64,000 nucleotides of DNA from an uncultured Lentisphaerota bacterium (GCA_903872565.1 CAIQLG010000012.1:18337-82336), one strand, 5' to 3'. Positions 3,355 to 18,551 are shown, counted from the stretch's first letter. Notes: generated by a model not told the origin, from the sequence alone. Numbers and translations: made by a program.

Positions 3355-3443
3355 CAATTGTTGTTGCCTTATTTAATTCGAGGGACGCGAGGGACGCGAC
3401 CGGTAATCGGTGGTCTGTAATTACCTTTATTTTCTCTTCAATA

Positions 3444-3583: not shown

Positions 3584-3647
3584 GTTGCTTTCGCAATTCC
3601 TCCTTGAATAACATATCCCTTTACGAGGGGAAAACAAACAGGATATC

Positions 3648-6554
3648 TTATGTGTTTAGCCCGAGCATTACAGATTTGACAGTTTTTTTCATTTCTTCAA
3701 TATCATAGGGTTTCTGAATGAAAATGAATCCTCTCTTGTGGATTGCCGCGATCCTTGATTTCTCGTCGGAATATCCGCTTGCGAGAATGACCTTTATCTC
3801 AGGATTTATCTTTTTGAATTCCTCGACAAGGTCCAGCCCATTGCAATCGGTGAGTACGACATCGCTTATCACAAGAGAAAATCTGCCCTTTTCCCTACTG
3901 AAAACTTCCCTGGCGACTTTGCCTGAATCCGCGCACACAATATTCCACCCGTCAGTTTCAAAGATTTCTTTCGCGAGATTTCTCAGTCCTGGTTCATCCT
4001 CTATGAAAAGTATTTTCACATTTTCACGAATGGTTGCAGTTGCAGTTTGTTCCGATATTACGTGAATGTCCTCATCAGCGTAATGGAATGGGAAATAGAT
4101 TTTGAAGGCTGTCCCCTTTCCCGGCGTGCTCTCAACGTCAACCCATCCTTTGTGGTGTTTGACGATTCCATAGACTACCGAGAGCCCGAGTCCCGTGCCC
4201 CTGCCCAAGCCTTTCGTGGTGAAGAACGGCTCGAAGATCCGATTTATCGTTTCCTTGTCCATCCCTGTTCCGTTGTCACAGACGGACAGTCGGACATATC
4301 TGCCCGGAACTGCGGAGATGTTGTCCGAGCATCCTTCCTCATCCACGGTGATATTTTCGGTCATTATAATCAGCGTTCCTCCATCCGGCATGGCATCATT
4401 GGCGTTCACAGCCAGGTTCATGATGATTTGCTCGATATTGGAGGGGTCACCGTTGATCGTCCAGACATCCGGGGTGGCCTTGATTTCGATTTTTATGTTC
4501 TCCGCGATGAGTCGCCTGAGAATTCTCTGCATGTTTAGGACGATGGAATTTATTTCGATAGTTTTAAATGCGACGGGCTGATTCCTGCTGAACATTAGGA
4601 TCTGCTTGGTGAGGCTTGCGGATGTGTCCGAGGCTTTTTTTATTTCGCCGAAATATTTTTTAAAAGGGCTTGAGGCGTCCGTTTTTTTAAGGCCGACCTG
4701 GGCGTATCCGCTTATGACGGTCAGAAGATTATTGAAGTCGTGGGCAATGCCGCCCGCGAGTTGTCCAATCGCCTCCATTTTCTGGGAATGTCTCAGCATT
4801 TCCTCCTTCCTGAGGCTTTCAGTTATATCCAGATCGGATCCCCTGTATCCGAGCAGATTTCCGTCACCGTCCAGGAACGGCACTCCATTTCTAGAAATCA
4901 ATTTTGTTTCACCGCTTTGGGAATTCACGGGCGTCACGAAATTTTTAAAGGCATCTTTGTTCATGAACACGTCGAGCTCTGCCCTTTTCATTTTTTCACT
5001 TTCATCTTCCGGATGGAAGTCGTAGAGGTGCATTTTTCCGACTATCTCCTCCGGTTTGTATCCGAGTATGAATTCAGCACCTTTGCTCACATAAGTGTAA
5101 AGTCCTCCGGCATCCACCTCCCATATCATTTCCCTTGTCTGTTCGGCAATCTGCTTGAATCTTTCCTTGCTCTGGTTCAGTGCCTTTTCAGAGCTGGAGA
5201 TTATGAGATTGGAAATCAACATTCTGTAGCTATACAGGAAAACCGACACGGTGACGGTCATGAAAAGGATTGTCAGGATAATCGGGATCAGCCTGTTCCG
5301 ATATATTGTGCTGTTCCATCTGGCGGCGCTCATGTCCATTCCGAGAATGGCTACAGTCTCGCCGGTTCTCGACATTTTGACGGGGGCGAAACAGCTTAGC
5401 CAAGTTCCCCACCTGTCCGTATATGGTCCGACAATTTTATATTCCCCGTCGCTGAACAAATCATTAACGCATCTCGGGGCATCGTTCCAGATCCGCCCCG
5501 GCGGAGAGCAGTCTTTTGAACCATGCGGTTCTGAATCCACCAGGAAGCTTACTCTGGAGTCATCTCCGACTTTCATCAGATATATGAATCTGTATTCGGA
5601 ACTGATTTCCTTTATTTTGGCGAGCTGTCTCTTAAGGCTCAAGTATGCCTCCGAACACAGATCCGTAGAATTTCCTTTCAGGGCGGGAATTCTTTCCATA
5701 TTTACGGCTTCAGCGACAACCCTGGCATTGGAAATGATGTCAAGTCTGAGTTCTTCATCGGTTCTCCTTCCCGAGATGTCTGTGGCAATTAGGCCTGCCA
5801 GCAGGATGCAAAAAATGATCGGCACATAAATTTTTTTAAACGGTATTCTACGGACCGTGGGCAGTAAATTGGGGGCGGGGATAGAAAAGGAGAAATAGTA
5901 CCATGTGAGACCGGCGGTCAAGGTCATCGCGCATATTCCGCTGGCGCCCTGGAGAGGCAGTCCGAAAAGTTCTCTGAACAATTCGCTGTTTATTGAACTT
6001 GCGGGGAAAAAGTTTGCCCTGGGGACAAAGACACCCATGAGGATTCCGTAGAGGAACATGGCGATGGAACTTAGAATCATGGGATATCGTTTCACATCGT
6101 TTTTTTCTCCTCTTTCCATATAGAATGCATACGATGCCGAAAAAGATCCTGTGATTAGAAAGACATATAGGCTTGCGGATTCATATCCCTTCGTACCGTC
6201 AATCCATCCGAGAGCGGAGAGGAGAAGCGGAAGAATGTATATCCATGCGCCGATACTTGTTATTTTCAGAACCGAAAGGGAACGCCTTCCGAATTCAAAG
6301 ATCGCCAACATTGAAACCGTATTGAAGAAGAACCGTACAATCTCGACATATTCCGGGAACAATGTGAATGGTTTGATGCAGATCGCCAATTCGGAGATTC
6401 CTGTTGAAAAGGTGAAAATTCCGAAGCAGAGGAACGGAAGTCTTTCAGCCTTGTTCTCGTGGAGGAAAAAACATATTATCGATAGAAAGATGAAGGAAAA
6501 TCCATACACGGCAAGCAGATAGTCCATTTGAAATTCGAATGTTACTTCCGGCAT
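3648..6554 (-). CDS. Hybrid sensor histidine kinase (multi-TM N-terminus, sensor region, PAS, HisKA, HATPase_c, C-terminal receiver)
   Basis: 968-aa ORF. Hydrophobic N-terminal ~250 aa. H-box GGIAHDFNNLLTVISGY, G-box GTGLGLSVVYGIV. Receiver ILFIEDEPGLRNL...ISDVVLTDCNG...ILASGY. Confidence 0.9.
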   Translation of the reverse strand: MPEVTFEFQMDYLLAVYGFSFIFLSIICFFLHENKAERLPFLCFGIFTFSTGISELAICIKPFTLFPEYVEIVRFFFNTVSMLAIFEFGRRSLSVLKITSIGAWIYILPLLLSALGWIDGTKGYESASLYVFLITGSFSASYAFYMERGEKNDVKRYPMILSSIAMFLYGILMGVFVPRANFFPASSINSELFRELFGLPLQGASGICAMTLTAGLTWYYFSFSIPAPNLLPTVRRIPFKKIYVPIIFCILLAGLIATDISGRRTDEELRLDIISNARVVAEAVNMERIPALKGNSTDLCSEAYLSLKRQLAKIKEISSEYRFIYLMKVGDDSRVSFLVDSEPHGSKDCSPPGRIWNDAPRCVNDLFSDGEYKIVGPYTDRWGTWLSCFAPVKMSRTGETVAILGMDMSAARWNSTIYRNRLIPIILTILFMTVTVSVFLYSYRMLISNLIISSSEKALNQSKERFKQIAEQTREMIWEVDAGGLYTYVSKGAEFILGYKPEEIVGKMHLYDFHPEDESEKMKRAELDVFMNKDAFKNFVTPVNSQSGETKLISRNGVPFLDGDGNLLGYRGSDLDITESLRKEEMLRHSQKMEAIGQLAGGIAHDFNNLLTVISGYAQVGLKKTDASSPFKKYFGEIKKASDTSASLTKQILMFSRNQPVAFKTIEINSIVLNMQRILRRLIAENIKIEIKATPDVWTINGDPSNIEQIIMNLAVNANDAMPDGGTLIIMTENITVDEEGCSDNISAVPGRYVRLSVCDNGTGMDKETINRIFEPFFTTKGLGRGTGLGLSVVYGIVKHHKGWVDVESTPGKGTAFKIYFPFHYADEDIHVISEQTATATIRENVKILFIEDEPGLRNLAKEIFETDGWNIVCADSGKVAREVFSREKGRFSLVISDVVLTDCNGLDLVEEFKKINPEIKVILASGYSDEKSRIAAIHKRGFIFIQKPYDIEEMKKTVKSVMLGLNT

Positions 6555-6565
6555 TTTATTCTCCC

Positions 6566-7885
6566 TTATTTCCAGTCATTTTCTCTGAAGAGAATGCTTC
6601 TGAATATTTTTTTTGTCAGCGAATGTCCCGATTTGAAGTCCTCGGGATTTGCCATGTAATGTGTTATGACCTTCGTCAGATCCAACATGGAGGCGAGGCG
6701 GTTGCCCGGGGTCTTGTCAAGCATTCTCGCCATTAGATCCTGTAGCCATTCCGGGATTTCCGGATTGATGCTTCTTGGTGCTGGAGGTTTTGCAGTTTTT
6801 ATTTTTTCCATGACCGCGTGAGCAGTTTTTCCCAAGAATGGCCTTTCTCCGGTAAATAGCTCATAGAGGAGGACTCCGAACGAGAAGATGTCTGACTTGG
6901 TGTCGCCTTGTGTTTCACCTCTAAGTATTTCCGGCGCCATGTAGGATGGCGATCCCCTGAGGGTGTCTGTCAAAGTGAGTGACGGGTCGAGAATTTTCGC
7001 TATGCCGAAATCTGTGATTTTCACGCGGATGTCTTCGGTCAGAAGGACATTTTCAGGCTTCAGGTCGCGGTGGAGTATCTTTTTTGAATGGATGTAGTCA
7101 AGTCCCGAAGCAATCTGAAGAGTCACTGAAAGTTTGTCCTCGTCTGTAAGATTTGCATTCTTTATGTAACTGGAGAGTGGTGCTCCGTGGACATATTCCA
7201 TGACGATATACGGCAGATCGTCGCCTTCAAAACCCCCCACGTCAAAAAGTTTGACCACATACGCATTGTCGAGAGACTTGAGGATCTCGGCTTCCCTGTT
7301 GAATCTTTTTTTTGCCAGCCTGTCAATTTCGGATCCTGAGTTGTTCAGAATCTTCATTGCGAAATAAGAGTCGTTTTTTTCAACGAGGAACACAGTTCCC
7401 GCGCCACCTGAGCCGATGGACTTGATCACGGAATATCCGTTTCTGATTTTTCCGACATTGCTGCCTTTCGTCTTTATCCGGCTCCCGTTTTTACGATCAA
7501 GGATAAGTCGGTTAATTTTTTTTTGCAGGTCATCGAGATTGAGTGGCTTGGGAAGATAGTCATAAGCTCCCTCCTTAATGGCTGTTACAGCCGCTTTGAA
7601 ATCAGGAACTCCTGTGACGAGGATGAAATCCGTCTTATTGTCCTTGCTTCTTACAGCTCTTAGAAGTTCGAGTCCAGACATATCCGGCATATTTATGTCG
7701 GAGATTACAAGATCGAAGTGCTTTGAGCTGAGTTTTTTCAGCGCCTCAGATGCCGATATGGCGGTATCAACCGCAAATCCGCTGTCGGCAAGGAAGAGTT
7801 CGAGCACCTGGAGGATTTCGTTCTGGTCATCCACAACAAGGATGGAAAGAAGAGGCAGGACTATTTTTTTTTTTTGCAGTCGCAT
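6566..7885 (-). CDS. Response-regulator receiver fused to Hanks-type Ser/Thr protein kinase (REC-STK 1)
   Basis: Receiver ILVVDDQNEIL...LVISDINMPDMSG...LPKPL. Kinase motifs GSGGAGTVF, AMK, HRDLKPENVLL, DFGIAK, SPSYMAPE. The start overlaps the stop of the upstream kinase across an A12 tract. Confidence 0.9.
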   Translation of the reverse strand: MRLQKKKIVLPLLSILVVDDQNEILQVLELFLADSGFAVDTAISASEALKKLSSKHFDLVISDINMPDMSGLELLRAVRSKDNKTDFILVTGVPDFKAAVTAIKEGAYDYLPKPLNLDDLQKKINRLILDRKNGSRIKTKGSNVGKIRNGYSVIKSIGSGGAGTVFLVEKNDSYFAMKILNNSGSEIDRLAKKRFNREAEILKSLDNAYVVKLFDVGGFEGDDLPYIVMEYVHGAPLSSYIKNANLTDEDKLSVTLQIASGLDYIHSKKILHRDLKPENVLLTEDIRVKITDFGIAKILDPSLTLTDTLRGSPSYMAPEILRGETQGDTKSDIFSFGVLLYELFTGERPFLGKTAHAVMEKIKTAKPPAPRSINPEIPEWLQDLMARMLDKTPGNRLASMLDLTKVITHYMANPEDFKSGHSLTKKIFRSILFRENDWK

Positions 7886-9486
7886 AGCACTTTGCGGAGC
7901 GTTGCGGACAATCCTTCTTCAGTGAAGGGTTTTTCAATGAAATTGATGCCCTTGTCGAGAATTCCACTGTTGGCCATCACATGGGATGTGTAGCCTGACA
8001 TGAATAGGCATTTGATTTTTGGGCGCATTGCGGTGATTCTCTTTCCGAGATCCTGTCCGTTCATTCCCGGAAGCACCACATCTGTCATCAGAAGATGAAT
8101 GTCTCCCTCGTCCTCCTTCGCCAGTTTGATTGCTTTGGCCGGGCTGTCCGCAGCCAGCACTGCATAGCCCATATGTTCAAGCTGCATTTTTGTAAGACAC
8201 AGCAAGGATGCCTCATCCTCTACCAGAAGGATAGTTTCATTTCCTCTGAGTATTTCGGAACTTCCAGGTGTCTCATCGGTTTCCTTATTTTCCGATTTGT
8301 ACCGCGGAAGATATATCTTGAATGTTGACCCCAGCCCAATTTCACTGTAAACATTGATGCATCCGTTGTTCTGCTTTACGATGCCGAAGACAGTGGAAAG
8401 ACCAAGGCCGGTTCCATTTTCGGTTTTTTTGGTGGTGAAAAACGGATCAAACAGGTGGGATATGGTCTCCTTGTCCATCCCGCATCCATTGTCTCCGACC
8501 GAGAGCACGACATATTCTCCTGGGACAAACTCGATGTGCGCCTTGCAATAGGCCGGGTCCAACTTGGAGTTGTAAGTCTCAATTGTCACCTTGCCGCCGT
8601 CGGCGACTGCATCACGGGCGTTGATGAGAAGGTTGGTAAGAATCTGATCAAGATGGGAGGAGTCCATCTTTACTGTCCAAAGTTTGGCGGCGGGTTTCCA
8701 TTGCAGTTCAATATTTTCACCAAGAAGCCTGTGCAGCATATTCAGCATGCTTTCAATGCTGTCGGCAATGTTCAGCTCTTTCATCGAGATGGGCTGTTTG
8801 CGGGCGAATGCGAGAAGCTGGTGGGTGAGGTCTGCGGAGCGTTGCCCTGCCTTTCTGATTTCCATCACACTGTCATACATCGGATTTGAAGAGGCAATCT
8901 CCTTTAGCAGCATCTGCGAATGTCCGTTGATGACAGCGAGCATATTGTTGAAATCGTGCGCGATACCGCCTGCCAGCTGACCTACAGCTTCCATCTTCTG
9001 AGCCTGACGAAGCTGAGATTCCAGATTTTCACGCTCCGCATTAAATGTCCGCTCCCATTCCTCCTTCGCTTTGAGCAGGCGCTCCATGGCCATATGGCGT
9101 CCCAGGGCGTAACACAGGACGCGCGCCAACAACAGCCCCGACACCTGGTCGCTCATGTGGCCTTTCATAATGTAGTCCTGCGCGCCTTCCTGTATTGCCG
9201 CCAGCCCCATTCTCTCATCGTCATTTCCGGTCAGCACGACAATTGGGATATCGGTGTCGGCTCTCCTCATTGCTCTCAAGGTTTCCAGCCCACTGCTGTC
9301 CGGCAGTTCCAAATTCAGAAGGATAATGTAGAATGGACCTTGCCTGGCGAGTTCAATGGCATCCGAAAGCCGCTGCACACATTTGATTTCAAACCTCGAC
9401 TCGCCGTCTGTTGCCAGCAACTCCCGTATCAAGCGGACATCGGCCGGGTTGTTTTCAACCAGCAGGACGTGTAACCTCTCAGTCAT
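7861..9486 (-). CDS. Hybrid histidine kinase with N- and C-terminal receiver domains (REC-HisKA-HATPase-REC)
   Basis: VLLVENNPADVRL...LLNLELPDSSG; H-box GGIAHDFNNMLAVINGH; GTGLGLSTVFGIV; second receiver ILLVEDEASL...LMTDVVLPGMNG. SD AAGGAG lies upstream of ATG 9486. Confidence 0.9.
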   Translation of the reverse strand: MTERLHVLLVENNPADVRLIRELLATDGESRFEIKCVQRLSDAIELARQGPFYIILLNLELPDSSGLETLRAMRRADTDIPIVVLTGNDDERMGLAAIQEGAQDYIMKGHMSDQVSGLLLARVLCYALGRHMAMERLLKAKEEWERTFNAERENLESQLRQAQKMEAVGQLAGGIAHDFNNMLAVINGHSQMLLKEIASSNPMYDSVMEIRKAGQRSADLTHQLLAFARKQPISMKELNIADSIESMLNMLHRLLGENIELQWKPAAKLWTVKMDSSHLDQILTNLLINARDAVADGGKVTIETYNSKLDPAYCKAHIEFVPGEYVVLSVGDNGCGMDKETISHLFDPFFTTKKTENGTGLGLSTVFGIVKQNNGCINVYSEIGLGSTFKIYLPRYKSENKETDETPGSSEILRGNETILLVEDEASLLCLTKMQLEHMGYAVLAADSPAKAIKLAKEDEGDIHLLMTDVVLPGMNGQDLGKRITAMRPKIKCLFMSGYTSHVMANSGILDKGINFIEKPFTEEGLSATLRKVLCDCKKKK

Positions 9487-9564
9487 CTATTTTGCTCCTT
9501 AAACTTAACCGGCTCCACCGGAGCTCAATATTTTTTGACGGGATTTACTGGATTATCAGGATAT

Positions 9565-9828
9565 TTAAAATATCAATATTCCAATCCTGTCCCAATTACA
9601 ATTACGGTCGGGGCTGCGAGGCTCGCACCTTTTTTTCAAGAGCTTTTCCATTCTCGCCCATTCAATTGCCATCCACTTGTGTTCACACTTATATTCTTTC
9701 ATCATAGTCTGAGTTTTTTCCGACAGTGCCGACACGTCATTACGGATATCACAGATTGATTTTGTCCGGGCATCATGCGCCGTCTTGATGTTTTCCGCGA
9801 TTTTGCATATTCTGCTAATTGTTTTCAT
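9565..9828 (-). CDS. Small helical hypothetical protein, possibly a short relative of the two coiled-coil proteins upstream
   Basis: The ORF-track entry 9565..9858 starts at TTG. An internal ATG at 9828 is preceded by AAGGA. The product is charged and helical (MKTISRICKIAENIKTAHDARTK...). No recognisable family. Confidence 0.35.
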   Translation of the reverse strand: MKTISRICKIAENIKTAHDARTKSICDIRNDVSALSEKTQTMMKEYKCEHKWMAIEWARMEKLLKKRCEPRSPDRNCNWDRIGILIF

Positions 9829-9863
9829 AATTTTCCTTGTCCATTTTTTTAACCCCAATATTA

Positions 9864-10550
9864 TCAGAAGGACATCGGAGCCAGTCCCGCAGCTTCGATC
9901 TTCATATTCTGTCCTTCCTTCCTTTTATCAGCCATGGTAGCGCTTAAGTCACGCCAGTGGGAAGCGCCCTGTTTTATCTCTTCCCTGCTCTGCATTCTTT
10001 TCGACCGGAGATTTTTCAGCATTATTTTCAGGTCCTGTATCCGTACCGCCGTTCCCTTCTCCAGGAGGCTCTGTAGCAATTCGGCTGCCATCTTGCGGTC
10101 GCGGTTGAAATCCGTCAGCATGTCACGAACCTCTTCTTCCCGTGATTTCTGGCTGGCCTGAATGTCCGTGATTATCTTTCGGAACTCATTTATTCTTTCC
10201 GATTCTCCTTCAAGGTGATCAGTCTTGTGCTTCTCGATGTTTTCCCTGATGGTCTTGGCGGCTTCCTTCTGTTCATCAAGATATGCCTTCAACAGATTTC
10301 TGGTTTCGCCTTCCCTTGATTCCTGTGATTCCAGTATCTCCTTCATCATAATATCAAAATCTTTTTTCCGCAGTGAGTCCTCCTTGGCCAGAGTTTCCCT
10401 CAGCTGTGTGCTCATGGCGCTTCGTTTTTCCCTGAAATCATCGAGCATCTGATGGGTATTGTCAATGATTGTGCAGACGGCCGAAATTCTGGATTCGTAG
10501 GAGGAGACTATTTCCTCCGTAAGTTTTCTCATATCTTCCGCATTGTTCAT
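9864..10550 (-). CDS. Coiled-coil protein of unknown function (paralog A), immediately downstream of gvpA genes
   Basis: 228 aa, rich in E/K/R/Q heptad-like sequence. AGGAG SD. N-terminus MNNAEDMRKLTEEIVSSYESRISAV matches its neighbour. Shared internal block YLDEQKEAAKTIR-N-I--HK-DH. Confidence 0.65.
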   Translation of the reverse strand: MNNAEDMRKLTEEIVSSYESRISAVCTIIDNTHQMLDDFREKRSAMSTQLRETLAKEDSLRKKDFDIMMKEILESQESREGETRNLLKAYLDEQKEAAKTIRENIEKHKTDHLEGESERINEFRKIITDIQASQKSREEEVRDMLTDFNRDRKMAAELLQSLLEKGTAVRIQDLKIMLKNLRSKRMQSREEIKQGASHWRDLSATMADKRKEGQNMKIEAAGLAPMSF

Positions 10551-10621
10551 AATGCCTACTCCTGTTTATAAAAAAATTGCCCGCTCTGTTTCGTGGGAAT
10601 TATCATTTTAAAAGCCCAGCG

Positions 10622-11347
10622 TCACGATCCCGTCTTCTCTATCTGTTTAAAATAATCCAGCATTATTATGGGAGATACTGTGAGAATTCTCCGCTGTGCC
10701 ATGTACATGTTCTGTCTGTCCGTGGCGATTAGTCCACGCCATTGGGATATCGTGTGCTTGAACACTTCCCACCATCCTTCGGAATGATGGCTCTTATGTC
10801 TTACCATTATTGTCGGACATTGGGTCTTGTCATCAGTTTCCTTCACCATGAAGATTTGAAGAAATTCAATTGTCATCTTATGTTTATTGTAGATAGTTTT
10901 CAGCATGTCGCGCAGTTCAATGTCGTGCTGTTTCTCGCTGACTCTCTGACTGGCATGGACATCGGCGATCCAGCTTCGGAATTCATTTATTCTTGCCGCA
11001 TCCACCTCAACGTGATCAATTTTGTGTCTTCCAATGTTTTTTCTGATAGTCTTAGCGGCTTCCTTCTGTTCATCGAGATAGATATTCAATAAAATTCTTG
11101 TTTCGTTTTCAATAGCCTCCTGGGGGCCAAGTATCTCCGTCATCATCCTGTCAAACTCTTTTTCGCAAAATGATTTTTCACGGGCGAACGTTTTCTTGAG
11201 CTGCATGCCCATAACACTGCGCTTTTCACTGAACCCGTCCAGTATCTGACGTGTATTGTCAACCATTGCACAGGCTGCCGAAACTCTGGATTCGCAGGAG
11301 GAGATTAATTCAGCCATCAGTTTTCTCATGTCTTCAGCATTGCTCAT
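10622..11347 (-). CDS. Coiled-coil protein of unknown function (paralog B)
   Basis: I trimmed the start to ATG 11347 (MSNAEDMRKLMAELISSCESRVSAA), which aligns with paralog A and has a GGGAG SD. The ORF-track start 11413 adds 22 unaligned residues. Confidence 0.65.
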   Translation of the reverse strand: MSNAEDMRKLMAELISSCESRVSAACAMVDNTRQILDGFSEKRSVMGMQLKKTFAREKSFCEKEFDRMMTEILGPQEAIENETRILLNIYLDEQKEAAKTIRKNIGRHKIDHVEVDAARINEFRSWIADVHASQRVSEKQHDIELRDMLKTIYNKHKMTIEFLQIFMVKETDDKTQCPTIMVRHKSHHSEGWWEVFKHTISQWRGLIATDRQNMYMAQRRILTVSPIIMLDYFKQIEKTGS

Positions 11348-11445
11348 AAAGATTGCTCCCGTTCTTAGGATATGGATTACTGGCGAACCATGCTTGGCAA
11401 CCGTCGGCTGCAAGGACGACTCGGCAGGTACCCATGTTTTGGTTT

Positions 11446-11652
11446 TTAGGCCGCTGTAGCTGTCAGACCGATAGCTTCAGCATACTTCAGATACGTTTCG
11501 ACTGACGCGACCACAACTCTGGCTTCAACTGCCAGAAGTTCTATCCCGACGAGGGATACCCTGACCCATGCGTCAACCACGATACCTTTGTCAAGTATGC
11601 GGTCCACAACTTCAACAAGACTCGAACTGCCGATTGTTTTTTCCACTGCCAT
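11446..11652 (-). CDS. gvpA: Gas vesicle structural protein GvpA (copy 1)
   Basis: The 68-aa product [68 protein letters not shown] is a textbook GvpA sequence. AGGAG SD. Confidence 0.95.
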
Positions 11653-11747
11653 TGTAGTAACTCCTGTTTTTGATTCCGATCCCCAGTTTTATTTTAGAGG
11701 ACAAGAACCGGTTTATTAATTCGACTCAACTAAACGATTTAACTTAC

Positions 11748-11954
11748 TTACGCTGCCGTAGCTGTCAGACCGATAGCTTCAGCATACTTCAGATACGTTT
11801 CGACCGACGCGACCACTACTCTAGCTTCAACTGCGAGAAGCTCGATACCAACCAGTGATACCCTGACCCATGCGTCAACAACGATACCCTTGTCCAATAT
11901 GCGGTCAACAACTTCGACCAGACTGGAACTTCCGATTGTTTTCTCCACTGCCAT
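11748..11954 (-). CDS. gvpA: Gas vesicle structural protein GvpA (copy 2, product identical to copy 1)
   Basis: Same 68-aa product. The ORF-track start 11963 is a GTG inside the SD GGGGGTGA, so ATG 11954 is preferred. Confidence 0.95.
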
Positions 11955-12017
11955 TTTACTCACCCCCTTTATTGCTGTTTAGTTTTGACTTTTCTGACTG
12001 TGACTGGGACTAGTATT

Positions 12018-12033
12018 AGCATGAAGGATGCCA
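12018..12033 (-). promoter_or_regulatory. Candidate sigma54 (-24/-12) promoter upstream of gvpA copy 2
   Basis: The minus strand reads TGGCATCCTTCATGCT (GG-N10-GC spacing), about 65 nt upstream of ATG 11954. Near-identical elements occur at three other sites in the window. Confidence 0.5.
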
Positions 12034-12192
12034 AAGGCTATAGCTGACTTTTAAAATAATTTCTATCATTTTAGTTATAAACGAGTTACATCTGCATTAA
12101 AAAAATAGACTGCTGGTAAATCAGATTTTATTGCATCGTTTTTTTGGGAATAATATGTGACAAAAACGGACAGAATTGAACGGAATTGCCAC

Positions 12193-12430
12193 AGTGGGGA
12201 ATGGGGAAGGGGAAAGAATGTGAGTTATGGGAAGCATGGGAGTTATTTTTTTGAGACCTTTGAGGGCAGGGGAAATATAGCTCTCATAATTCAATGTTGC
12301 TAAGTTAAGCCAAGTAACGCGGGATACCACCCCGCGACTTTCCTCGGGGAGATTCCCCGAGTTACTCGAATTCAGGCTTAACTTAGCAACATTCCTCTCA
12401 TAATTCACATAATTTCCATAGCTCCCATAA
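12193..12430. repeat. Inverted arrays of 9-nt GGGA(A/G)TTAT-type units, interrupted by a palindromic insertion
   Basis: 12193..12250 reads GTGGGGAATGGGGAAGGGGAAAGAATGTGAGTTATGGGAAGCATGGGAGTTAT. The reverse complement of 12385..12430 reads GGGAGCTATGGAAATTATGTGAATTATGAGAGG. The same unit type is seen at 18257..18305 and 3444..3487. Confidence 0.65.
12293..12393. repeat. 101-bp MITE-like palindromic element with 19-bp perfect terminal inverted repeats
   Basis: AATGTTGCTAAGTTAAGCC (12293..12311) is the exact reverse complement of 12375..12393. Two internal GC hairpins (CGCGGG..CCCGCG, CTCGGGG..CCCCGAG). Flanked by the direct repeat CTCTCATAATTC at 12281..12292 and 12395..12406. Confidence 0.7.
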
Positions 12431-12440
12431 ACGGTGATCA

Positions 12441-13769
12441 TCAGCTCCAAGTTTTGTGGAAGATTTCCTTAATGAAACTTTTCTTGTAGTTATTTTCGTA
12501 TTTGGTTTTTTCATACCTGTCGAGTTCCTGAATGATTTCGGAGACACTGCCATATCTGTTGTCAGGTAATTTCTCGAGCATTTTGCCGACGATATCACGG
12601 AGCATCATCGGCAACTTGTTGTTTAATTTCATTGGGTCTTCAGGTTTTGACTTCATGATGCTCTCTTTTATTCCGGAGAGGCCTGCGCCCGCAAAAGGCC
12701 TTTTCCCTGCGAGGATTTCATAGCTTATCACACCGAGGGAGAAAATGTCGGCTCTCTCGTCGATCTTGTTTATATTGTCGAAGCTTTCAGGCGCCATGTA
12801 TGTCGGCGAACCTAGCATTGCATTGGTCATCGTCAGTTCGGAGTCAAACACGCGAGCGACTCCGAAGTCTATGAGTTTGCATTCATCTTCTCTGGTTATA
12901 ATGACATTCTGAGGTTTGATGTCCCTGTGAAGTACCCCATAACTATGAACAATTTGAAGAGCTGATGCAATCTTTCTCATGATTGAAACAGCCTGTCCAG
13001 TCTGTATATGAGTTGATTTCATGTACTCATCGAGGGTGTTTCCTGGAAGATACTCCATTATTATGTAAGGTATCTCTCCCTGTTCCGAGAGTCCGTATTC
13101 AACTAATTTTATGATATTGGGATGGCTGATGCTTGAAATGATTTTTGCTTCTCTGAAAAATCTTTTGACTTTTTCAATCGAGAATGTTTTCGATCCGAAC
13201 ACCTTCATTGCATAATACACTTTTTCCTTTTCAACCAGGAAGACTTTGCAGATGCTTCCCGAACCTATTTCCTTAATGACCTTATAACCCGCAGGCGGGT
13301 AAAGAGTAATTCCGGCAAGAGTTTCCTTATTGTAAAAAAGAGCTTTGTCAAGGATGTCCTTGAATTTCTTGAGGTTAAGTGGTTTAGTGAGGACATCGAG
13401 GGCGCCTCCTATGAGTGCATCAAGGGCGGTGTCAGGAGCATTCTCAAGATCCTTCGCGTCGCAGACTATGATCATTTTTGTGCTCTGCGAGTTTTCTGTG
13501 CAGAAATGCAGAAGATCCATGGCTGTTGATTTCCCCTGGACGTTGTAATCGCAGAAGACAAGCGCGTAGTAGAAGTTCTTGAATAGCTTTAAGGCCTTTT
13601 CCGATCTGTCGCACGTCTGAATTTCATATCCGAGATGCCCCAGCTCCCTTTCAAGAAGCTGTACGATAAGATCCTCGTTTCCAATAACGAGTATCCTGGG
13701 GACAAAAGGGTCGCCCTTGTTTTCCAGTATCCTTGTCTTGACATTCGGATCGTCTTCTTCGCTGATCAT
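12441..13769 (-). CDS. Degenerate receiver domain fused to Hanks-type Ser/Thr protein kinase (REC-STK 2)
   Basis: Kinase motifs GSGSICKVF, AMK, HRDIKPQNVII, DFGVAR, SPTYMAPE. The N-terminal receiver-like fold keeps the phospho-acceptor position (LVFCDYN) and LTKPL, but the acidic pair is replaced (VIGNED). Confidence 0.85.
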   Translation of the reverse strand: MISEEDDPNVKTRILENKGDPFVPRILVIGNEDLIVQLLERELGHLGYEIQTCDRSEKALKLFKNFYYALVFCDYNVQGKSTAMDLLHFCTENSQSTKMIIVCDAKDLENAPDTALDALIGGALDVLTKPLNLKKFKDILDKALFYNKETLAGITLYPPAGYKVIKEIGSGSICKVFLVEKEKVYYAMKVFGSKTFSIEKVKRFFREAKIISSISHPNIIKLVEYGLSEQGEIPYIIMEYLPGNTLDEYMKSTHIQTGQAVSIMRKIASALQIVHSYGVLHRDIKPQNVIITREDECKLIDFGVARVFDSELTMTNAMLGSPTYMAPESFDNINKIDERADIFSLGVISYEILAGKRPFAGAGLSGIKESIMKSKPEDPMKLNNKLPMMLRDIVGKMLEKLPDNRYGSVSEIIQELDRYEKTKYENNYKKSFIKEIFHKTWS

Positions 13770-13831
13770 TTAGTGTCTTTATTTTAAAGTTCTATGTCTT
13801 GAGCGTATGCAAAAGTTAAATTTGTGGTTCA

Positions 13832-13963
13832 GGAAGTCAGGAGTCAGAATTCAGAATGAAAACAACTCAATTGCTTCTCAATTATTTTCTCTTTTGTTTT
13901 TGATATTATTCTGACTACTGTCTCCTGTCTTCTGACTTCTCTTGGGTTGCGGGCAAAGCCCGC
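13832..13963. repeat. Intergenic imperfect palindrome plus short GC hairpin between two REC-STK genes
   Basis: GGAAGTCAGGAGTCAGAAT (13832..13850) pairs imperfectly with ATTCTGACTACTGTCTCCTGTCTTCTGACTTC (13908..13939). Hairpin GCGGGC-aaa-GCCCGC at 13949..13963 sits just 3' of the stop at 13971 and has no U-tract. Confidence 0.5.
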
Positions 13964-13970
13964 CTATATA

Positions 13971-15293
13971 TCAACTCCATGGATTATCAATGAGCAGCAT
14001 GCTTTTCAGGAATTTTGATGTTATTGTATCATTCACAGGCGCCTTGTCATCCTCGTTTTTCTGATGGAATTCTATTGATTCAATGATTTTTCCGGCCGTC
14101 GGATAACGATTCTCCGGATTTTTCGTCATCATCTTTGCGATGGTATTCTGAAGCCAGGAGGGAATATCAGCATTGATTTTTTTTGGTTCGAGGGGCTTCC
14201 TTGTCTTTATCGCCTCCATTACCTGGAATACATTATCGCCTGGAAAGGCGCGCCGGGATGTCACGAGTTCATAGCAGAGCGATCCGAGAGAAAATATGTC
14301 GGACCTATTGTCTAGTGTCTTGGCGGAATCGAAGCTTTCGGGAGCCATATAATGGGGAGATCCCATCACATCATCCATCATCGTGAGCGATGATTCCTGC
14401 GTTTTAGAGATTCCGAAGTCGCTTATCTTCACCTGCGAGTTTTGTGTTATCATTATGTTGTCGGGCTTGATATCTCTGTGGATGAAGCCCAGACTGTGGA
14501 TATAATCAAGCACCGATGCAAGTTGCTTGATTATGTGAATGCGCAACTTGATGTCCATCGCAGTGTTTGCAATATAGTCCGAAAGCCGAGATCCATCTAT
14601 ATATTCCATGATTATGAAAGGAGTGCCGACATCCGGCAGGATACCATACTTATATACCTTGACAATGTTCCGATGATCCATTTCCTCCAAGATTTTAAAT
14701 TCGCGGAGAAATCTTTTCACGGATATTTCATGCTTTTCAGGGGAGTCTTTCTTCTTCATTATCTTCATCGCGTAACTGGCGCAATTTTTCTCGACTAGCA
14801 GAACTAGGCCGCTATTCCCTGAGCCAAGTGATTTCAATATCTTGTATTTTCCCGTCTGGAAAAAAACGGAGTCAAGGATCTGCTCCTCGGAGCTTTTCAC
14901 CTCGCTTCCCTGTTCCGCAAGTGCCGAATTTATTTTAGCGGCCAGATTATTCAGATCGATAGGCTTGGCTATATAATCTAAAGCGCCTTCCTTGATCGAA
15001 CTGACTGCATCTTTAAGATCCGGATGCCCAGTCATCAATATTATATGCATCGCAGGGCAGTGTTTTCTGCAGTAAGTAAGGAATTCAAGCCCGTTCATCC
15101 CCGCCATCCGGACATCAACCAGTGCAAGGCTAAATACGGTGTCTGCCATAAGTCCAAGCGCATCACTGCAATTTCCCGCAGTTGAAACCGAAAAAGATTC
15201 TGAAAGTGCGGTGTTCAGGAATTCACGAACATTATCCTCGTCATCAACAACGAGGATATTTTTCTTGACATTTGTTATCTCAGGATATAACAT
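13971..15293 (-). CDS. Response-regulator receiver fused to Hanks-type Ser/Thr protein kinase (REC-STK 3)
   Basis: Receiver ILVVDDEDNVREF...LALVDVRMAGMNG...IAKPI. Kinase GSGNSGLVL, AMK, HRDIKPDNIMI, DFGISK, SPHYMAPE. GAGGGAG SD. Confidence 0.9.
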   Translation of the reverse strand: MLYPEITNVKKNILVVDDEDNVREFLNTALSESFSVSTAGNCSDALGLMADTVFSLALVDVRMAGMNGLEFLTYCRKHCPAMHIILMTGHPDLKDAVSSIKEGALDYIAKPIDLNNLAAKINSALAEQGSEVKSSEEQILDSVFFQTGKYKILKSLGSGNSGLVLLVEKNCASYAMKIMKKKDSPEKHEISVKRFLREFKILEEMDHRNIVKVYKYGILPDVGTPFIIMEYIDGSRLSDYIANTAMDIKLRIHIIKQLASVLDYIHSLGFIHRDIKPDNIMITQNSQVKISDFGISKTQESSLTMMDDVMGSPHYMAPESFDSAKTLDNRSDIFSLGSLCYELVTSRRAFPGDNVFQVMEAIKTRKPLEPKKINADIPSWLQNTIAKMMTKNPENRYPTAGKIIESIEFHQKNEDDKAPVNDTITSKFLKSMLLIDNPWS

Positions 15294-15333
15294 CTGACTC
15301 CCTCTTCCGTATCAGATAATAAAGGAAAAAGGC

Positions 15334-15568
15334 ACACGCTAAAGCCGTGAACTCCAGCAAATTATTATCTTGACATAAGCATTCACTAAATAAAAATGGC
15401 ACTAAGTCAAGGGTTTCTTCTGAAGTAACTCGGGTCTATTGACCCGAGAATCGCGGGTCAGATAGACCCGCGCTACTCTGGGATGAGCCTTAACTTGGTG
15501 GCATTCCACTAAATAACGCATAGTTCACTCCTTTGAAACTGCCGTTGGAGTTCACGGCTTTAGCGTGT
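15334..15568. repeat. 235-bp palindromic element with 23-bp perfect terminal inverted repeats, carrying a second nested MITE-like element (15395..15505)
   Basis: ACACGCTAAAGCCGTGAACTCCA (15334..15356) is the exact reverse complement of 15546..15568. The inner element has imperfect ends (AATGGCACTAAGTCAAGGG / GCCTTAACTTGGTGGCATT). It carries the same two GC hairpins as 12293..12393 in opposite orientation. It is flanked by CACTAAATAA at 15384..15393 and 15507..15516. Confidence 0.7.
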
Positions 15569-15660
15569 TCTTTTCTTGGCAGTTTCATATTGACAAAACT
15601 GCGGACACCGCAGTAAAACGCTGAATACCTACGCTTCGTGTGTCTGTGAGATAATACTTT

Positions 15661-16413
15661 TTAACTTGCTGCAATTTTCAGATTGACAAAATTGAACGGA
15701 GGCACCTCACACACATATTTAAGTTTTATTCTCTTACCGTATTTTGTGTCAATATCGTTGACTTTCCTGTAAAACGCCTCCTCCTTGTCCACTTCCACAA
15801 GGAACGCGGCATTTATAATCATCCTCACGCCGAAAGCATTGTTGATTTTCACTTCTACGGCGAGAGGGGAAAGAATCCTCAATATCTCCTTCTTTAGAAT
15901 TTCAACTTCCGCCCGCAGCGCGGCCTCGACCATTTCCCCTATCTTCATCCGCTGTGGATAGGTTTTCTCTGGAGGCTTGGCAATTATAGACATTTTTAAT
16001 TTATTGATGTCCTTATGCTTTTCCAGGATATAGCTGTATATGGCTTCCTCAATGAAAACCGCTTTCACTCCCAGCTCTTTTTTATTGTCGAGCTTTTTCA
16101 GCAGTTCTTTGAATTTGACATTTTCTTTCCTCAATATTTCCAGTATCTCGACATCGGTTGCGATTATGCCGAATCTGACAGGAAGCACGCCTGCAAATTC
16201 CTTCATCACTACATCGATCACCTTTGCGTGAGCCAGCATATTTTCCCGGCTGGCGGTAATTTTGGCGATGGGATGACTGCTTGCGACCATTCTCATATCC
16301 TCATGGCCGATGGTTGAAACCTCATCTCCCCTGCCACCCACCCCGATTGGACCGAAACTTCTATCATGGATTGAAGGGATAATGCAATAAATATACTTTC
16401 CGTCCTGTGCCAT
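15661..16413 (-). CDS. gvpF: Gas vesicle assembly protein, GvpF/GvpL family
   Basis: 250 aa. The N-terminus MAQDGKYIYCIIPS...FGPIGVGG...V..I....MRMVAS and overall layout are typical of the GvpL_GvpF family. Located in a gvpA context. Confidence 0.85.
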   Translation of the reverse strand: MAQDGKYIYCIIPSIHDRSFGPIGVGGRGDEVSTIGHEDMRMVASSHPIAKITASRENMLAHAKVIDVVMKEFAGVLPVRFGIIATDVEILEILRKENVKFKELLKKLDNKKELGVKAVFIEEAIYSYILEKHKDINKLKMSIIAKPPEKTYPQRMKIGEMVEAALRAEVEILKKEILRILSPLAVEVKINNAFGVRMIINAAFLVEVDKEEAFYRKVNDIDTKYGKRIKLKYVCEVPPFNFVNLKIAAS

Positions 16414-16538
16414 AAAAAAACCTTTAATATGAGAAAATAATGGATGTTCGATTCATCTTGTCTGTTGGAAGTACCGCAGAGTCAAGGACAAGTGGCCTGG
16501 GATATCACACCCAGAAGCACTGCATTCATCCCTCCTGT

Positions 16539-17255
16539 TCAGCAGACAATCACTACGCTGTTGACAGAACAGAACACATTTGGCTCGAACCTTATGGCAT
16601 TAGGATCCGGTATCCATTGGCCGTCAACAATGAACTTGTATTGGTATTCTCCGGGTGCAAGTACCATCAAGGCCTGGAATTCCCTTCCCTGTCTTGTCAT
16701 CGGCTCCGGGATCCAGTTGTTAAAATCGCCAGCCAGGCAGACCTCTCCAGCTTCCGATTCGGCAGGCCAACTGAATTTGTGAGTTTTCCCAGTCTTTTTT
16801 TTCGTCTCGTAGCCGGACTGACATTTGCCCACGGAGCACTCCTTAGCCGTCGCCTTCTTCTGCGTCTTTTTCTTCCCCATCATTCCAACCTCCTTTTCCA
16901 CTTTAGCTGTTTGTATCATATTCTCGGATAATGACATAATCTTGTTAGATTTGACATCTTCTCCTATTTCATCACATAGAAGTCTCTTGAAAAACATCTT
17001 GATGGTGCTGATAGCCCTGGATGCGTCGGCACCAATCGCGGAGATGGTGAATATGGCACCTCCCGGGATGCCAAGCGTGATGATGTCCAGCAGGCTCTTG
17101 GCATCCGCCTTTCTATCATTGTATTCGATAAACACATCGGATTCGAACTGTCTTGACACCTTCACAAGCAGTGAAACAGGACGCATATGCATGGCGACAA
17201 TCTTGTCAAGGATTACCTCAATACTACATGTCGGGCAATTATACGGCAAGCCCAT
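16539..17255 (-). CDS. Fusion of HPr-like phosphocarrier domain and AMPK-beta/CBM48-type glycogen-binding domain
   Basis: I trimmed the start to ATG 17255 (strong GGAAGGAGAG SD). HPr-like VAMHMRPVSLLVK (His15 position) and NDRKADAKSLLDIITLG (Ser46 position). The C-terminus FSWPAESEAGEVCLAGDFNNWIPEPMTRQGREFQALMVLAPGEYQYKFIVDGQWIPDPNA resembles the AMPK beta-subunit glycogen-binding module. Lys-rich linker. Confidence 0.75.
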   Translation of the reverse strand: MGLPYNCPTCSIEVILDKIVAMHMRPVSLLVKVSRQFESDVFIEYNDRKADAKSLLDIITLGIPGGAIFTISAIGADASRAISTIKMFFKRLLCDEIGEDVKSNKIMSLSENMIQTAKVEKEVGMMGKKKTQKKATAKECSVGKCQSGYETKKKTGKTHKFSWPAESEAGEVCLAGDFNNWIPEPMTRQGREFQALMVLAPGEYQYKFIVDGQWIPDPNAIRFEPNVFCSVNSVVIVC

Positions 17256-17356
17256 CGTTACTCTCCTTCCAGTTAAATGATTTCTCTTTAAATCAGATTT
17301 TATTTCCGTTGCCCTCGGATGGCCATAAGCCTGCGGGATTTCTGGCAGATTGGTAT

Positions 17357-17713
17357 CTATATGCCACCCAATGAACATTTGGCATGTCCGGCCTCAAGAA
17401 GCGCCTCCCAAATTTTCATCATTTCAGGGGGGAGGCATTTGCTCATGATTCTTTCGGGATCCACCGGATCAATGAAATGAGCAAGTTCGTGTGCAATAAC
17501 AGGCACCAATCCAAGCCGATATTTAGGTTCAAGAATGCTACTATTGCTGTAATGCAGGACTACCTTGGTAGTTTTTCCAAAGAGAGCACGTCCCATTACT
17601 CCCTCGAAAGAATCATCGTACACGACTTCAAAGGAGATACCCTGAAGTTCCGGGAAATATTTATTCCGCACGGACTCCATAAAAGCAACAACTTCGAGTT
17701 CATTATCAGTCAC
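17357..17713 (-). CDS. Small putative zinc metallopeptidase-like protein (HExxH)
   Basis: 118 aa, GTG start with GAGAGGTGA SD. Single VIAHELAHFIDP motif. No further family recognised. Confidence 0.55.
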   Translation of the reverse strand: MTDNELEVVAFMESVRNKYFPELQGISFEVVYDDSFEGVMGRALFGKTTKVVLHYSNSSILEPKYRLGLVPVIAHELAHFIDPVDPERIMSKCLPPEMMKIWEALLEAGHAKCSLGGI

Positions 17714-17818
17714 TTAATCACCTCTCATCCGGTCTTAATGCGAGTATGCAAAACACCCCAGACCCACACTTTGCGCAGGCCTAAGGATTGATTTTTTCAG
17801 ATGGCCGCAGGGTTGGTT

Positions 17819-17977
17819 TCAGTCCTCTGCTGTTGCGAGTGCCACAGCTTCAGCATACTCCAGATAGATTTCGACCGAGGGCACAACAATTCTGGCCTCA
17901 ACCTCGATACCTTTGTCCATCACGCGATCCATAGCTTCGACCAGGCTTGGACTTCCGCTTGTTTTTTCCGCTGTCAT
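17819..17977 (-). CDS. 52-aa GvpA-like protein lacking the central beta-hairpin (in-frame 16-residue gap relative to GvpA)
   Basis: Below the ORF-track length cutoff; I translated it by hand: [52 protein letters not shown]. It aligns with GvpA residues 1-24 and 41-68. SD GGGGAATACC and a sigma54-like element lie upstream. Confidence 0.6.
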
Positions 17978-18074
17978 GGTATTCCCCTTGTTTTACAATT
18001 CCCTTTTTTTCAGAACAGAAGCACCATCTTTTCAGATTTTTAATGCTTTATTCTTCTTTTCCAGCATTATATAT

Positions 18075-18090
18075 AGCAGGATTGATGCCA
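18075..18090 (-). promoter_or_regulatory. Candidate sigma54 (-24/-12) promoter upstream of the short gvpA-like ORF
   Basis: The minus strand reads TGGCATCAATCCTGCT, preceded by CAGCTATA as at the gvpA copy 2 element. About 100 nt upstream of ATG 17977. Confidence 0.5.
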
Positions 18091-18256
18091 TAAGTTATAG
18101 CTGGTGTTTTCATAAGTTCCTATCTTTATTAATATAAACATCTTGCATATATACAAAAAAATAATATGTCAAAATATACGGTGTCTGAAGGCTTCCTATA
18201 TGGTGATTATATGGGACAAATCCGGGCAGAATGGTTGGATTTGCCACAGAAAAGAA

Positions 18257-18393: not shown

Positions 18394-18551
18394 GTCATCT
18401 GAATATTTTTCTATGCATGAACCGCATACCCGCATCCTTTTTACTCAAAAGATGGCGCGGAATGAAAAATGCGGCGGCATGGAGCAAGTGTCCAAGCTCC
18501 ATGTCAATGTCAGAATAAATATGTTTTATGGCCGGGATGCCGTCCGTGATC

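Follow-up and report, generated by a model that had tools for sequence, protein, structure and literature searches.

Does a block of gas-vesicle genes that lacks most of the recognised assembly genes, and that is interleaved with Ser/Thr kinases and phosphorelay proteins, represent a new and reduced way of building gas vesicles? The question is raised by a minus-strand gene block at positions 3648-18090 of a stretch of DNA from an uncultured Lentisphaerota bacterium (GCA_903872565.1, CAIQLG010000012.1:18337-82336). The stretch, referred to here as the window, is 64 kb long and is given as one strand; all coordinates are window positions unless a contig is named. An earlier note, made from the sequence alone, had listed the genes of this block and proposed either a much reduced or novel assembly set with a new regulatory logic, or the recruitment of GvpA and GvpF for something other than classical gas vesicles. 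The gene list and its order could be verified through open reading frame (ORF) listing, translation and scans against Pfam and NCBIfam; the coiled-coil paralogs number three, where the note had allowed two or three, and one further hybrid kinase extends the block leftwards. Its remark that gvpN, J, K, G, M and O cannot be recognised agrees with the Pfam scans as well, in which GvpN, GvpJ/M, GvpK, GvpG and GvpO had no match among the main ORFs of the window (a set of 55 greedy non-overlapping ORFs of at least 70 aa, minus some short ones). What does not hold is the idea of a reduced or novel assembly set. Positions 1-18090 are probably the distal part of a gas-vesicle supercluster of ~40-45 kb in the Victivallales (Lentisphaerota), not a self-sufficient reduced system. 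This distal part combines the shell genes with genes for three proteins in the gvpC position, a further gvpF, a shortened GvpA (here called mini-GvpA) and a signalling module.

The evidence that carries this reading comes from close relatives, whose contigs continue directly upstream into the standard genes. Positions 9958-18836 are matched at 99.9-100% identity by three independent metagenome contigs, so the sequence itself can be taken as real. Names such as BUCK21-1... and ERZ1426xxx suggest that the identical contigs derive from lake metagenomes, and the bacterium is taken to be a freshwater one. The nearest genome in a species-representative collection, which does not contain the window's own, is an uncultured Victivallis sp. 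metagenome-assembled genome (GCA_964540865.1, hereafter the sister MAG), and the other top GvpF matches were Lentisphaeria/Lentisphaerota MAGs. Contig CAZION010000080.1 of the sister MAG (28,456 bp), reconstructed from three loci, has all of its genes in one direction. It opens with gvpA, the helical-repeat proteins CC1 and CC2, a 198-aa protein, a 110-aa protein and a zinc-ribbon protein, followed by GvpN (AAA_5), a GvpJ-like protein, HSP20, ArsA and CDC48. Next come GvpF-DnaJ, two GvpF, GvpG, GvpL, a 72-aa Gas_vesicle protein, GvpF/L and GvpK, then an NtrC-type activator, a Volactin-matching protein, a CHASE-PAS-HK-REC-REC-Hpt kinase (HK, histidine kinase; REC, receiver) and a REC protein. 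The contig closes with the counterpart of the window's block, in the same order: a 51-aa mini-GvpA (58% identical), a protein with an HExxH motif (83%), the additional GvpF paralog GvpF' (72%), and two fusions of a receiver to a Hanks-type Ser/Thr kinase, STK1 (69%) and STK2 (80%). Four to five GvpF/L proteins are encoded in all.

A similar picture is obtained within the window's own species. An exact-protein look-up led to contig Mreo0HSN (70.4 kb, sample ERZ1426827), on which the gene lengths follow one another as in the window and the proteins GvpF', GvpA and mini-GvpA are identical. Ahead of the 52-aa mini-gvpA ORF it carries, in order, GvpF-DnaJ, GvpF, a 167-aa protein, Volactin, GvpF, GvpG, GvpL, a 69-aa Gas_vesicle protein, GvpF, GvpK, an NtrC-type activator, MazE and an intact IS630 element, with GvpG, GvpK and the 69-aa Gas_vesicle protein all within 7 kb upstream. 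Another strain's contig (M-m_8ATT) encodes the identical 52-aa ORF and has the NtrC gene 413 bp upstream of it, without an intervening insertion sequence (IS). A third species, with a syntenic GvpF of 72% identity, has a 51-aa protein, a 118-aa protein, GvpF and two REC-STK genes behind Volactin, a CHASE kinase and a REC protein, and GvpN through GvpG are found on another contig of the same sample. The best conspecific GvpN candidate (P0176) had to be rejected, as it belongs to this third species. Because the standard genes lie upstream in relatives, the ancestral arrangement can be taken to be one large supercluster with the window as its distal half. Judging from these syntenic contigs, the ancestral upstream set would have comprised gvpN and a gvpJ-like gene (both seen in two sister species), gvpG, gvpK, gvpL/F, HSP20, ArsA, CDC48 and the NtrC-type activator. 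The earlier note had looked to a complete canonical cluster elsewhere in the genome, with this locus silent, as a finding that would undo its proposal; such a cluster was found in relatives, not in the window's own genome.

The upstream genes belong to a widespread type of gvp cluster, seen in Cloacimonadota, Planctomycetota, Nitrospirota, Elusimicrobiota and others, with the order gvpA-(helical protein)-...-gvpN-...-gvpJ-HSP20-ArsA-CDC48-gvpF:DnaJ-gvpF-gvpG-gvpL-gvpS-gvpK. The window's gvpA-gvpA-CC1-CC2-CC3 series corresponds to the head of this type, and gvpF' is a paralog of its GvpF. The kinases, however, set the Victivallales cluster apart, since no Hanks kinase lies within 10 kb of gvpF in any of 80 gvpF loci from other phyla. 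A further feature of the clade's superclusters is the conserved Volactin-matching protein itself, a member of an actin-like family with 347-348 aa (315 bits in the sister MAG), located at 16045-17091 of contig L015, at 1311-2354 of contig L013 and in the gene tables of Mreo0HSN and UE7L1T6p. An unannotated gene of ~170 aa always precedes it, and an actin-like protein may be relevant to vesicle positioning.

The shell genes of the window are of the ordinary kind. The two gvpA copies (copy 1 at 11748-11954, copy 2 at 11446-11652, both minus strand) encode the same 68-aa protein from DNA that is ~88% identical. Scored on the copy 2 sequence, this protein reaches 58.9 bits against Pfam Gas_vesicle and 131.6 bits against NCBIfam GvpA, where the cutoff is 100, and its sequence equals that of the GvpA at the head of the sister MAG's standard cluster (100% identity). 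The extra gvpF' (15661-16413, minus strand; Pfam GvpL_GvpF, 185 bits) is closer to its syntenic sister copy than to the standard GvpF of the main cluster, with which it shares 62-63% identity. The unit of mini-gvpA, HExxH gene and gvpF' was found in this Victivallales clade only.

Mini-GvpA is the more unusual shell-related protein. The gene (17819-17977, minus strand; 52 aa) was identified by alignment with GvpA and by a partial match to the NCBIfam GvpA family. It scores 19.1 bits against Pfam Gas_vesicle (PF00741), for which the cutoff is 25 bits, owing to the loss of 16 residues. The lost residues correspond to beta1 and the first half of beta2; the end of beta2 is retained along with the N-terminus and both helices, alpha1 and alpha2. 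The same deletion is present in four orthologs of 51-52 aa (the window, the sister MAG and two JGI contigs), all with intact frames, a synonymous divergence (dS) of 0.5-0.95 and a nonsynonymous to synonymous ratio (dN/dS) of 0.17-0.48. With its orthologs intact and under purifying selection, mini-gvpA is a gene under selection and no pseudogene. The alignment indicates descent from GvpA, as a member that would not be shell-competent. The core of each rib in a GvpA shell is made by the hairpin, which together with alpha1 also provides the hydrophobic lumen; alpha2 is the GvpC-binding face and the N-terminus connects adjacent ribs (PMC9994262). A protein that keeps the contacts and has lost the core could plausibly act as a cap, a competitor or a ligand of GvpF'. 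A conserved GvpA without its hairpin does not appear in the literature searched. Directly 3' of mini-gvpA lies a terminator-like hairpin (17756-17786, minus strand), a consensus match only, in which 14 pairs are followed by a T-rich run; it may serve as an attenuator.

Downstream of gvpA, in the position that gvpC would occupy, are three genes on the minus strand for helical proteins: CC1 (10622-11347, 241 aa), CC2 (9864-10550, 228 aa) and CC3 (9565-9828, 87 aa). CC1 and CC2 are paralogs of ~50% identity, and a CC1 subfamily with a 'GWWEVFK' C-terminal region is kept in P0020 and P0022. CC3 has no Pfam match; by tblastn it is related to a 124-aa gene that follows gvpA at locus L009 of the sister MAG, and also to a portion of the 198-aa protein encoded by the third gene in the sister's main cluster. 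The helical-repeat family comprises 53 clusters, none with a functional annotation and three with generic JGI labels. Where both a helical-repeat gene and gvpA were found (~20 of 20 loci), the former lies directly 3' of gvpA and starts 120-400 bp past it. These loci come from many phyla, including Elusimicrobiota, Planctomycetota, Nitrospinota, Atribacterota, Cloacimonadota, Chlamydiota, Ignavibacteria, Syntrophorhabdales and others.

An AlphaFold (AF2) model of CC2, built from a 27-sequence alignment, is all-helical, with four helices of ~50 residues and a pLDDT of 75. Helices 1-3 are significantly alike, with repeat z-scores up to 7.2. Homology to GvpC was considered and rejected: searches of Pfam, NCBIfam, PDB profiles and Foldseek (with the pLDDT-75 model) returned no GvpC or other match for these proteins, the hits being generic coiled-coil noise. 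The coiled-coil ORFs thus belong to no known Gvp family, though they occupy the gvpC position of standard clusters in many phyla. Like cyanobacterial GvpC, which strengthens the vesicle at its outer surface, they are encoded right after gvpA, are all-alpha and are predicted to be built from tandem repeats; unlike it, their repeat is ~50-55 residues long and not 33. Position, sequence and model together point to positional and architectural analogues of GvpC, not to GvpC itself. GvpC attaches to helix alpha2 along the ribs (PMC9994262). The helical-repeat family at the gvpC position is unannotated and was not encountered in the literature searched.

The remainder of the block is a signalling module, again encoded entirely on the minus strand. 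STK1 (13971-15293) and STK3 (6566-7885) each join a standard receiver to a Hanks-type kinase, and STK2 (12441-13769) joins an intact kinase to a degenerate receiver with a weak REC match. All three, like their orthologs, have the Gly-loop, the catalytic Lys and the HRD, DFG and APE motifs, and the kinase domains score 182-197 bits against Pfam Pkinase. In the receivers of STK1 and STK3 the DD acidic pair, the phospho-acceptor D, the T and the K are intact. The STK2 receiver keeps the Asp and Lys and is considered a pseudo-receiver because GN replaces DD and Cys replaces Thr; its ortholog is likewise degenerate (GS). The other components are a REC-HisKA-HATPase-REC protein without a sensor domain (7861-9486), which overlaps STK3 by 25 nt, and two hybrid kinases. 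HK968 (3648-6554, 968 aa) has, by Pfam and a hydropathy scan, ~6 transmembrane segments, an extracytoplasmic loop and a further transmembrane segment ahead of PAS-HisKA-HATPase-REC. The second hybrid kinase, dCache-PAS-PAS-HisKA-HATPase-REC-Hpt, is truncated by the window end, which leaves its first 1119 codons (1-3357); in relatives it has 1521 aa (HK1521). It falls outside the span given in the earlier note but is part of the same conserved block, as seen in the gene tables of conspecific contigs and of L009.

Conservation of this module can be followed across species. The order and strand of the STK genes between gvpF' and gvpA are kept in at least three species-level lineages. Locus L009 of the sister MAG carries gvpA, a CC3-like gene, a 1098-aa REC-HK-REC-REC-STK protein, an ortholog of HK968 (73% identical) and an ortholog of the second kinase (HK1533), the two downstream hybrid kinases being conserved at ~73-75%. 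The REC-HK-REC protein and STK3, separate in the window, are thus a single ORF in the sister MAG, which argues that they act in one pathway. Hybrid His-Asp phosphorelays are well known, as are Hanks-type kinases joined to two-component domains, for instance the cyanobacterial HstK proteins. The present module resembles them in combining receiver, HisKA/HATPase, Hpt and Pkinase domains, in one polypeptide in the sister species, but differs in its link to gas-vesicle genes, an output that was found in no described case in the literature searched. Literature searches likewise yielded no report of a naturally occurring Ser/Thr kinase within a gvp cluster, nor any account of gas vesicles in Victivallales/Lentisphaerae, so that REC-Hanks kinases conserved inside a gvp cluster appear, as far as the literature was searched, to be new.

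Two further observations concern the receivers and kinases. The C-terminal tails of the three REC-kinases and their orthologs are conserved and finish in W-S or W-K (…NPWS, …KTWS, …NDWK); this ending may be a docking motif. In addition, clusters whose gene content differs from the window's have a stand-alone receiver gene directly beside gvpA (L006 10001-10693, L007 527-1219, L011 9245-9886, L012 8376-9839). The L006 and L007 version shares 68% identity with the receiver of REC-STK3. The association of gvpA with a neighbouring receiver may thus extend more widely than that with the kinases.

Sequence motifs suggest how the two halves of the block could be transcribed. A sigma-54-type -24/-12 motif (TGGCAT-N5-CTGC, 18076-18090, minus strand) lies 113 nt upstream of the mini-gvpA ATG, and the same motif is found 119 nt upstream in the sister MAG. 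A second motif (TGGCAT-N5-ATGC, 12019-12033, minus strand) lies ~65 nt upstream of gvpA1. Four loci whose DNA or gene content is distinct from the window's (L004, L005, L006, L010) have equivalent motifs 79-130 nt ahead of gvpA. The strict pattern TGGCAY-N6-TGC occurs 5 times in the 64-kb window against 1.65 expected; allowing two mismatches removes the enrichment (56 matches against 64 expected), so only the strict pattern is informative. An ORF at 12121-12450 (106-109 aa) was also considered in this region and set aside: it matches no family, a tblastn comparison with the sister MAG gave nothing, and since it is not conserved it is probably no gene and is taken as part of a non-coding gvpA promoter region. 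Two more strict motifs lie on the plus strand (26348-26362 and 49511-49525), ~100-190 nt upstream of genes for a FAD-dependent oxidoreductase and a papain-like peptidase, and suggest that the organism uses sigma-54 widely.

The closest described parallel is Serratia sp. ATCC 39006, in which a sigma-54 site precedes gvpA1 and the gene requires the NtrC-like activator GvrA (PMC4982088). In both systems gvp genes and their regulators are encoded together and there are several gvpA and gvpF paralogs. The in-cluster NtrC-family activator and the sigma-54 site before gvpA of Serratia are matched here by the sigma-54 motifs and by an NtrC-type gene that lies outside the window, directly upstream in the conspecific and sister contigs. 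However, Serratia has no Hanks-type kinase, REC-kinase fusion or hairpin-less GvpA. It has a recognisable GvpC, whereas an unrelated helical-repeat family fills the gvpC position here. The signalling module is also far larger than that of Serratia, with two or three hybrid kinases, a REC-HK-REC protein and three REC-kinases. The earlier note had contrasted the Ser/Thr kinases with the known regulators, GvpD/E or NtrC-type GvrA. Its new regulatory logic survives in part: the link to kinases and a phosphorelay is conserved in at least three lineages, but it supplements NtrC/sigma-54 control and does not replace it.

From the gene content, synteny, motifs and fusion described above, we infer a mechanism in which control is exerted at two levels. 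At the transcriptional level, the first sigma-54 promoter would drive mini-gvpA, the HExxH gene, the HPr-CBM48 gene, gvpF', STK1 and STK2, and the second would drive the two gvpA genes, CC1, CC2, CC3, REC-HK-REC, STK3, HK968 and HK1521. The NtrC-type regulator of the cluster would activate both promoters, in the manner of GvrA in Serratia. External or periplasmic cues would be sensed by the pair of membrane hybrid kinases, from which phosphoryl groups would travel via REC and Hpt domains and reach REC-HK-REC and the three REC-Hanks kinases at their receiver domains. Phosphorylation of a receiver would gate the Ser/Thr kinase activity, and the REC-kinases would in turn phosphorylate Gvp proteins or regulators, adding a post-translational layer of buoyancy control on top of transcription. 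The helical-repeat proteins would most likely coat and stiffen the shell as a GvpC analogue, and mini-GvpA would most likely tune GvpA assembly by capping, by competing or by binding GvpF'.

Two further genes of the block do not belong to any Gvp family. The HExxH protein (17357-17713, minus strand; 118 aa) was recognised by its motif and has no match in Pfam, NCBIfam, PHROG or PADLOC. Its family is rare, with ten representatives among 1.8 billion proteins, and the motif is kept in 8 of 9 members. Copies at least 82% identical adjoin mini-gvpA, although two of the three contigs end short of gvpF; copies 40-74% identical have no gvp or kinase gene nearby. The three longest contigs of the latter kind (61-74% identity) carry phage genes, namely a terminase, HNH endonucleases, a DnaD-like loader and a methyltransferase. 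The gene thus looks like a phage-shared gene that became fixed in the clade's cluster. In a zincin metallopeptidase the HExxH motif would be expected on a helix that follows a beta-sheet; a single-sequence AF2 model (pLDDT 70) of the protein has the order alpha-beta-beta-beta-alpha(HExxH)-alpha-alpha, with no significant fold match in the PDB. In four longer phage-like contigs an ORF of ~100-130 aa with a conserved 'IPPANRR...SSMRAAT' motif precedes the HExxH gene (L104 5637-5945, L107 3165-3473, L102 819-1220, L109 9690-10004); it is absent from the gvp island. The HPr-CBM48 fusion (16539-17255, minus strand; 238 aa, or 279 aa from an alternative start at 17378) matches Pfam PTS-HPr at 61.5 bits, AMPK1_CBM at 54.2 bits and the NCBIfam HPr family, and has His15-like and Ser46-like motifs. 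Its absence at the same position in the two sister species leaves it in the window's species only.

Whether the standard genes are missing from this strain, or merely from the window, depends on how the right boundary of the island is read. The island ends at a remnant of an IS630-family (DDE_3) transposase at 18552-18980 (minus strand; 142 codons; Pfam DDE_3 38.9 bits, profile 5-102 of 146). The remnant matches IS630-type transposases by tblastn and lacks the N-terminal HTH and an internal piece, and an intact 363-aa HTH_32+DDE_3 gene stands at the same site in Mreo0HSN. The self-sufficient assembly set envisaged in the earlier note, needing no gvpN, gvpJ, gvpK, gvpG or gvpL, could draw on the lack of any further gvp family in the window and on its several unassigned ORFs, but is very improbable. 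The standard genes are directly upstream, on the same contig, in every relative with upstream DNA or a gene table; the boundary is a degraded IS; and the unassigned ORFs turn out to be the phage-shared HExxH gene, the species-specific HPr-CBM48 and gvpC-position proteins common to full standard clusters. Two accounts of that boundary can be given, and on both of them the lack of gvpN/J/K/G in the window is an effect of the boundary and no property of the system. Recombination at IS630 copies may have separated this strain's island from the standard genes, which were then either moved elsewhere in the genome or lost; if lost, the block would be a non-functional remnant. Alternatively, the join between gvp and metabolic genes may be an assembly chimera through the shared IS630 repeat, with a real genome that has the standard cluster upstream. 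Each is a serious possibility that we hold at somewhat less than even, and both lean on the same facts. The gvp-side contigs of three samples end inside the remnant (18700-18836) with the same internal deletion, the metabolic-side contigs of these samples start at 19101-19154, and in an independent assembly (L116) the metabolic side, 18931-26492, is also flanked by a remnant piece of 123 bp. Recombination is further suggested by the contrast between the remnant here and the intact copy in the sister strain, and by ERZ27313089 and ERZ18625568, in which the gvp-side and metabolic-side contigs both end facing the repeat. Against it, 18836-18931 is bridged by the window alone and by no independent assembly, the two flanks in ERZ1426827 are on separate contigs with the gvp flank running into the standard cluster, the DNA of L116 past the remnant is unrelated to the gvp side, and the island ORFs are all intact, without signs of decay. 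The unbridged segment counts in favour of a chimera, as does the identity of the left part of the remnant to gvp-side contigs and of its right part to metabolic-side contigs, and the placement of the two flanks on separate contigs in the MAG-level sample. The shared repeat is short, however, and in two samples the two types of contig end 265-400 bp apart facing the same remnant, as would be expected of a true adjacency broken by a multi-copy repeat.

Other alternatives concern what the block does. The recruitment of GvpA and GvpF for a structure other than classical gas vesicles, the second proposal of the earlier note, finds a point in its favour in mini-GvpA, which without its rib-forming hairpin could not make a normal shell. 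It is nonetheless scarcely credible given two full-length GvpA copies that score above the NCBIfam cutoff and are identical to the sister's standard GvpA, in a block that is contiguous with a full standard cluster in relatives. It is also improbable that the REC-Ser/Thr kinases are passengers in a variable region, whether PD-T4-6-/MADS-type anti-phage kinases or regulators of unrelated processes. The kinases do match the PADLOC PD-T4-6 and mad6 models at 224-274 bits, and the same stretch holds an IS, the phage-shared HExxH gene and an element resembling a miniature inverted-repeat transposable element (MITE). But any Hanks kinase domain matches those models, the kinase domain alone is covered and no partner defence genes are present; as a defence system the block was therefore discarded, the matches being generic. 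The constant order and strand of the kinases, the fusion of STK3 to the cluster's own REC-HK-REC and the apparent placement of both units behind sigma-54 motifs common to gvp genes also argue for membership of the cluster. A bolder version of the control proposed above is a post-translational switch, in which the hybrid kinases, on sensing environmental signals, open three receiver-gated Hanks kinases that phosphorylate shell or assembly proteins, with mini-GvpA and its own GvpF capping or inhibiting assembly. We regard this switch as unlikely, though not negligibly so. If true, vesicle growth could be started, stopped or reshaped faster than transcription permits, and nature would have provided a gas-vesicle system under kinase control that includes its own modulator of assembly.

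Several points weigh against reading the window as the distal part of a functional supercluster with kinase control. The 64 kb contain no other gvp gene, and past the IS remnant lie unrelated metabolic genes, so that the presence of standard gvp genes in this particular strain is argued from its relatives. GvpN is unseen on the conspecific contig Mreo0HSN, the visible part of which ends at GvpF-DnaJ, and a search with the sister GvpN gave more than 7000 matches at 77-95% identity, none of them on that 70-kb contig. No kinase substrate, phosphatase or FHA protein was identified, and the helical-repeat family showed no homology to GvpC. With one gene shared with phages (HExxH) and another confined to the species (HPr-CBM48), the block is partly mosaic and to that extent not functionally coherent. 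Position and sequence are the basis for the proposed phosphotransfer routes, for the activity of the promoters and for what the helical-repeat proteins and mini-GvpA would do.

Beyond the gas-vesicle genes, the window holds a number of other features. The MITE-like element mentioned above, of ~247 bp, occupies 15328-15574 in the 367-bp spacer between gvpF' and REC-STK1, with 29-nt inverted repeats (93% complementary) and an inner 16-nt hairpin. A repeat of ~35-70 nt with an internal palindrome, resembling repetitive extragenic palindromic (REP) sequences, occurs between genes at 18317-18350, 19186-19255, 26490-26518 and 60400-60468; two copies flank the IS remnant and related copies are found in contigs L006 and L007 of the same metagenomes. 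From 19.6 to 64 kb the main ORFs cover sugar and redox metabolism, seven URO-D-like paralogs, a hybrid kinase, a giant surface protein and similar genes, and no Gvp family was found among those called. The seven URO-D-family paralogs form an unusual array at 30909-39378, interspersed with a mannitol-dehydrogenase-like gene; just upstream are genes for a zinc alcohol dehydrogenase, a short-chain dehydrogenase and two FAD_oxidored proteins. At 53660-59428 (minus strand), a 1922-aa protein with CarboxypepD_reg, SpaA-like and FG-GAP repeats is probably a giant surface or adhesin protein. The sole Rfam match of the window is a tRNA at 60565-60637.

For the mining of gas-vesicle genes, a practical lesson can be drawn: where an apparently reduced gene set lies beside an IS remnant, sister assemblies should be compared before the set is called novel. 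The helical-repeat family is a candidate for the missing "GvpC" of uncultured phyla and could be useful in finding and expressing new types of gas vesicle. Mini-GvpA can be viewed as a natural mutant with which to probe what the beta-hairpin, alpha1 and alpha2 contribute to assembly. To our knowledge, gas-vesicle regulation is understood in few organisms only, through GvpD/E in haloarchaea and through GvrA-C and quorum sensing in Serratia. A phosphorelay within the cluster that feeds Ser/Thr kinases, if true, would be a new layer of control. Kinase-responsive acoustic reporters are being built by engineering GvpC, and the Victivallales cluster would, on the same condition, provide them with a natural precedent.

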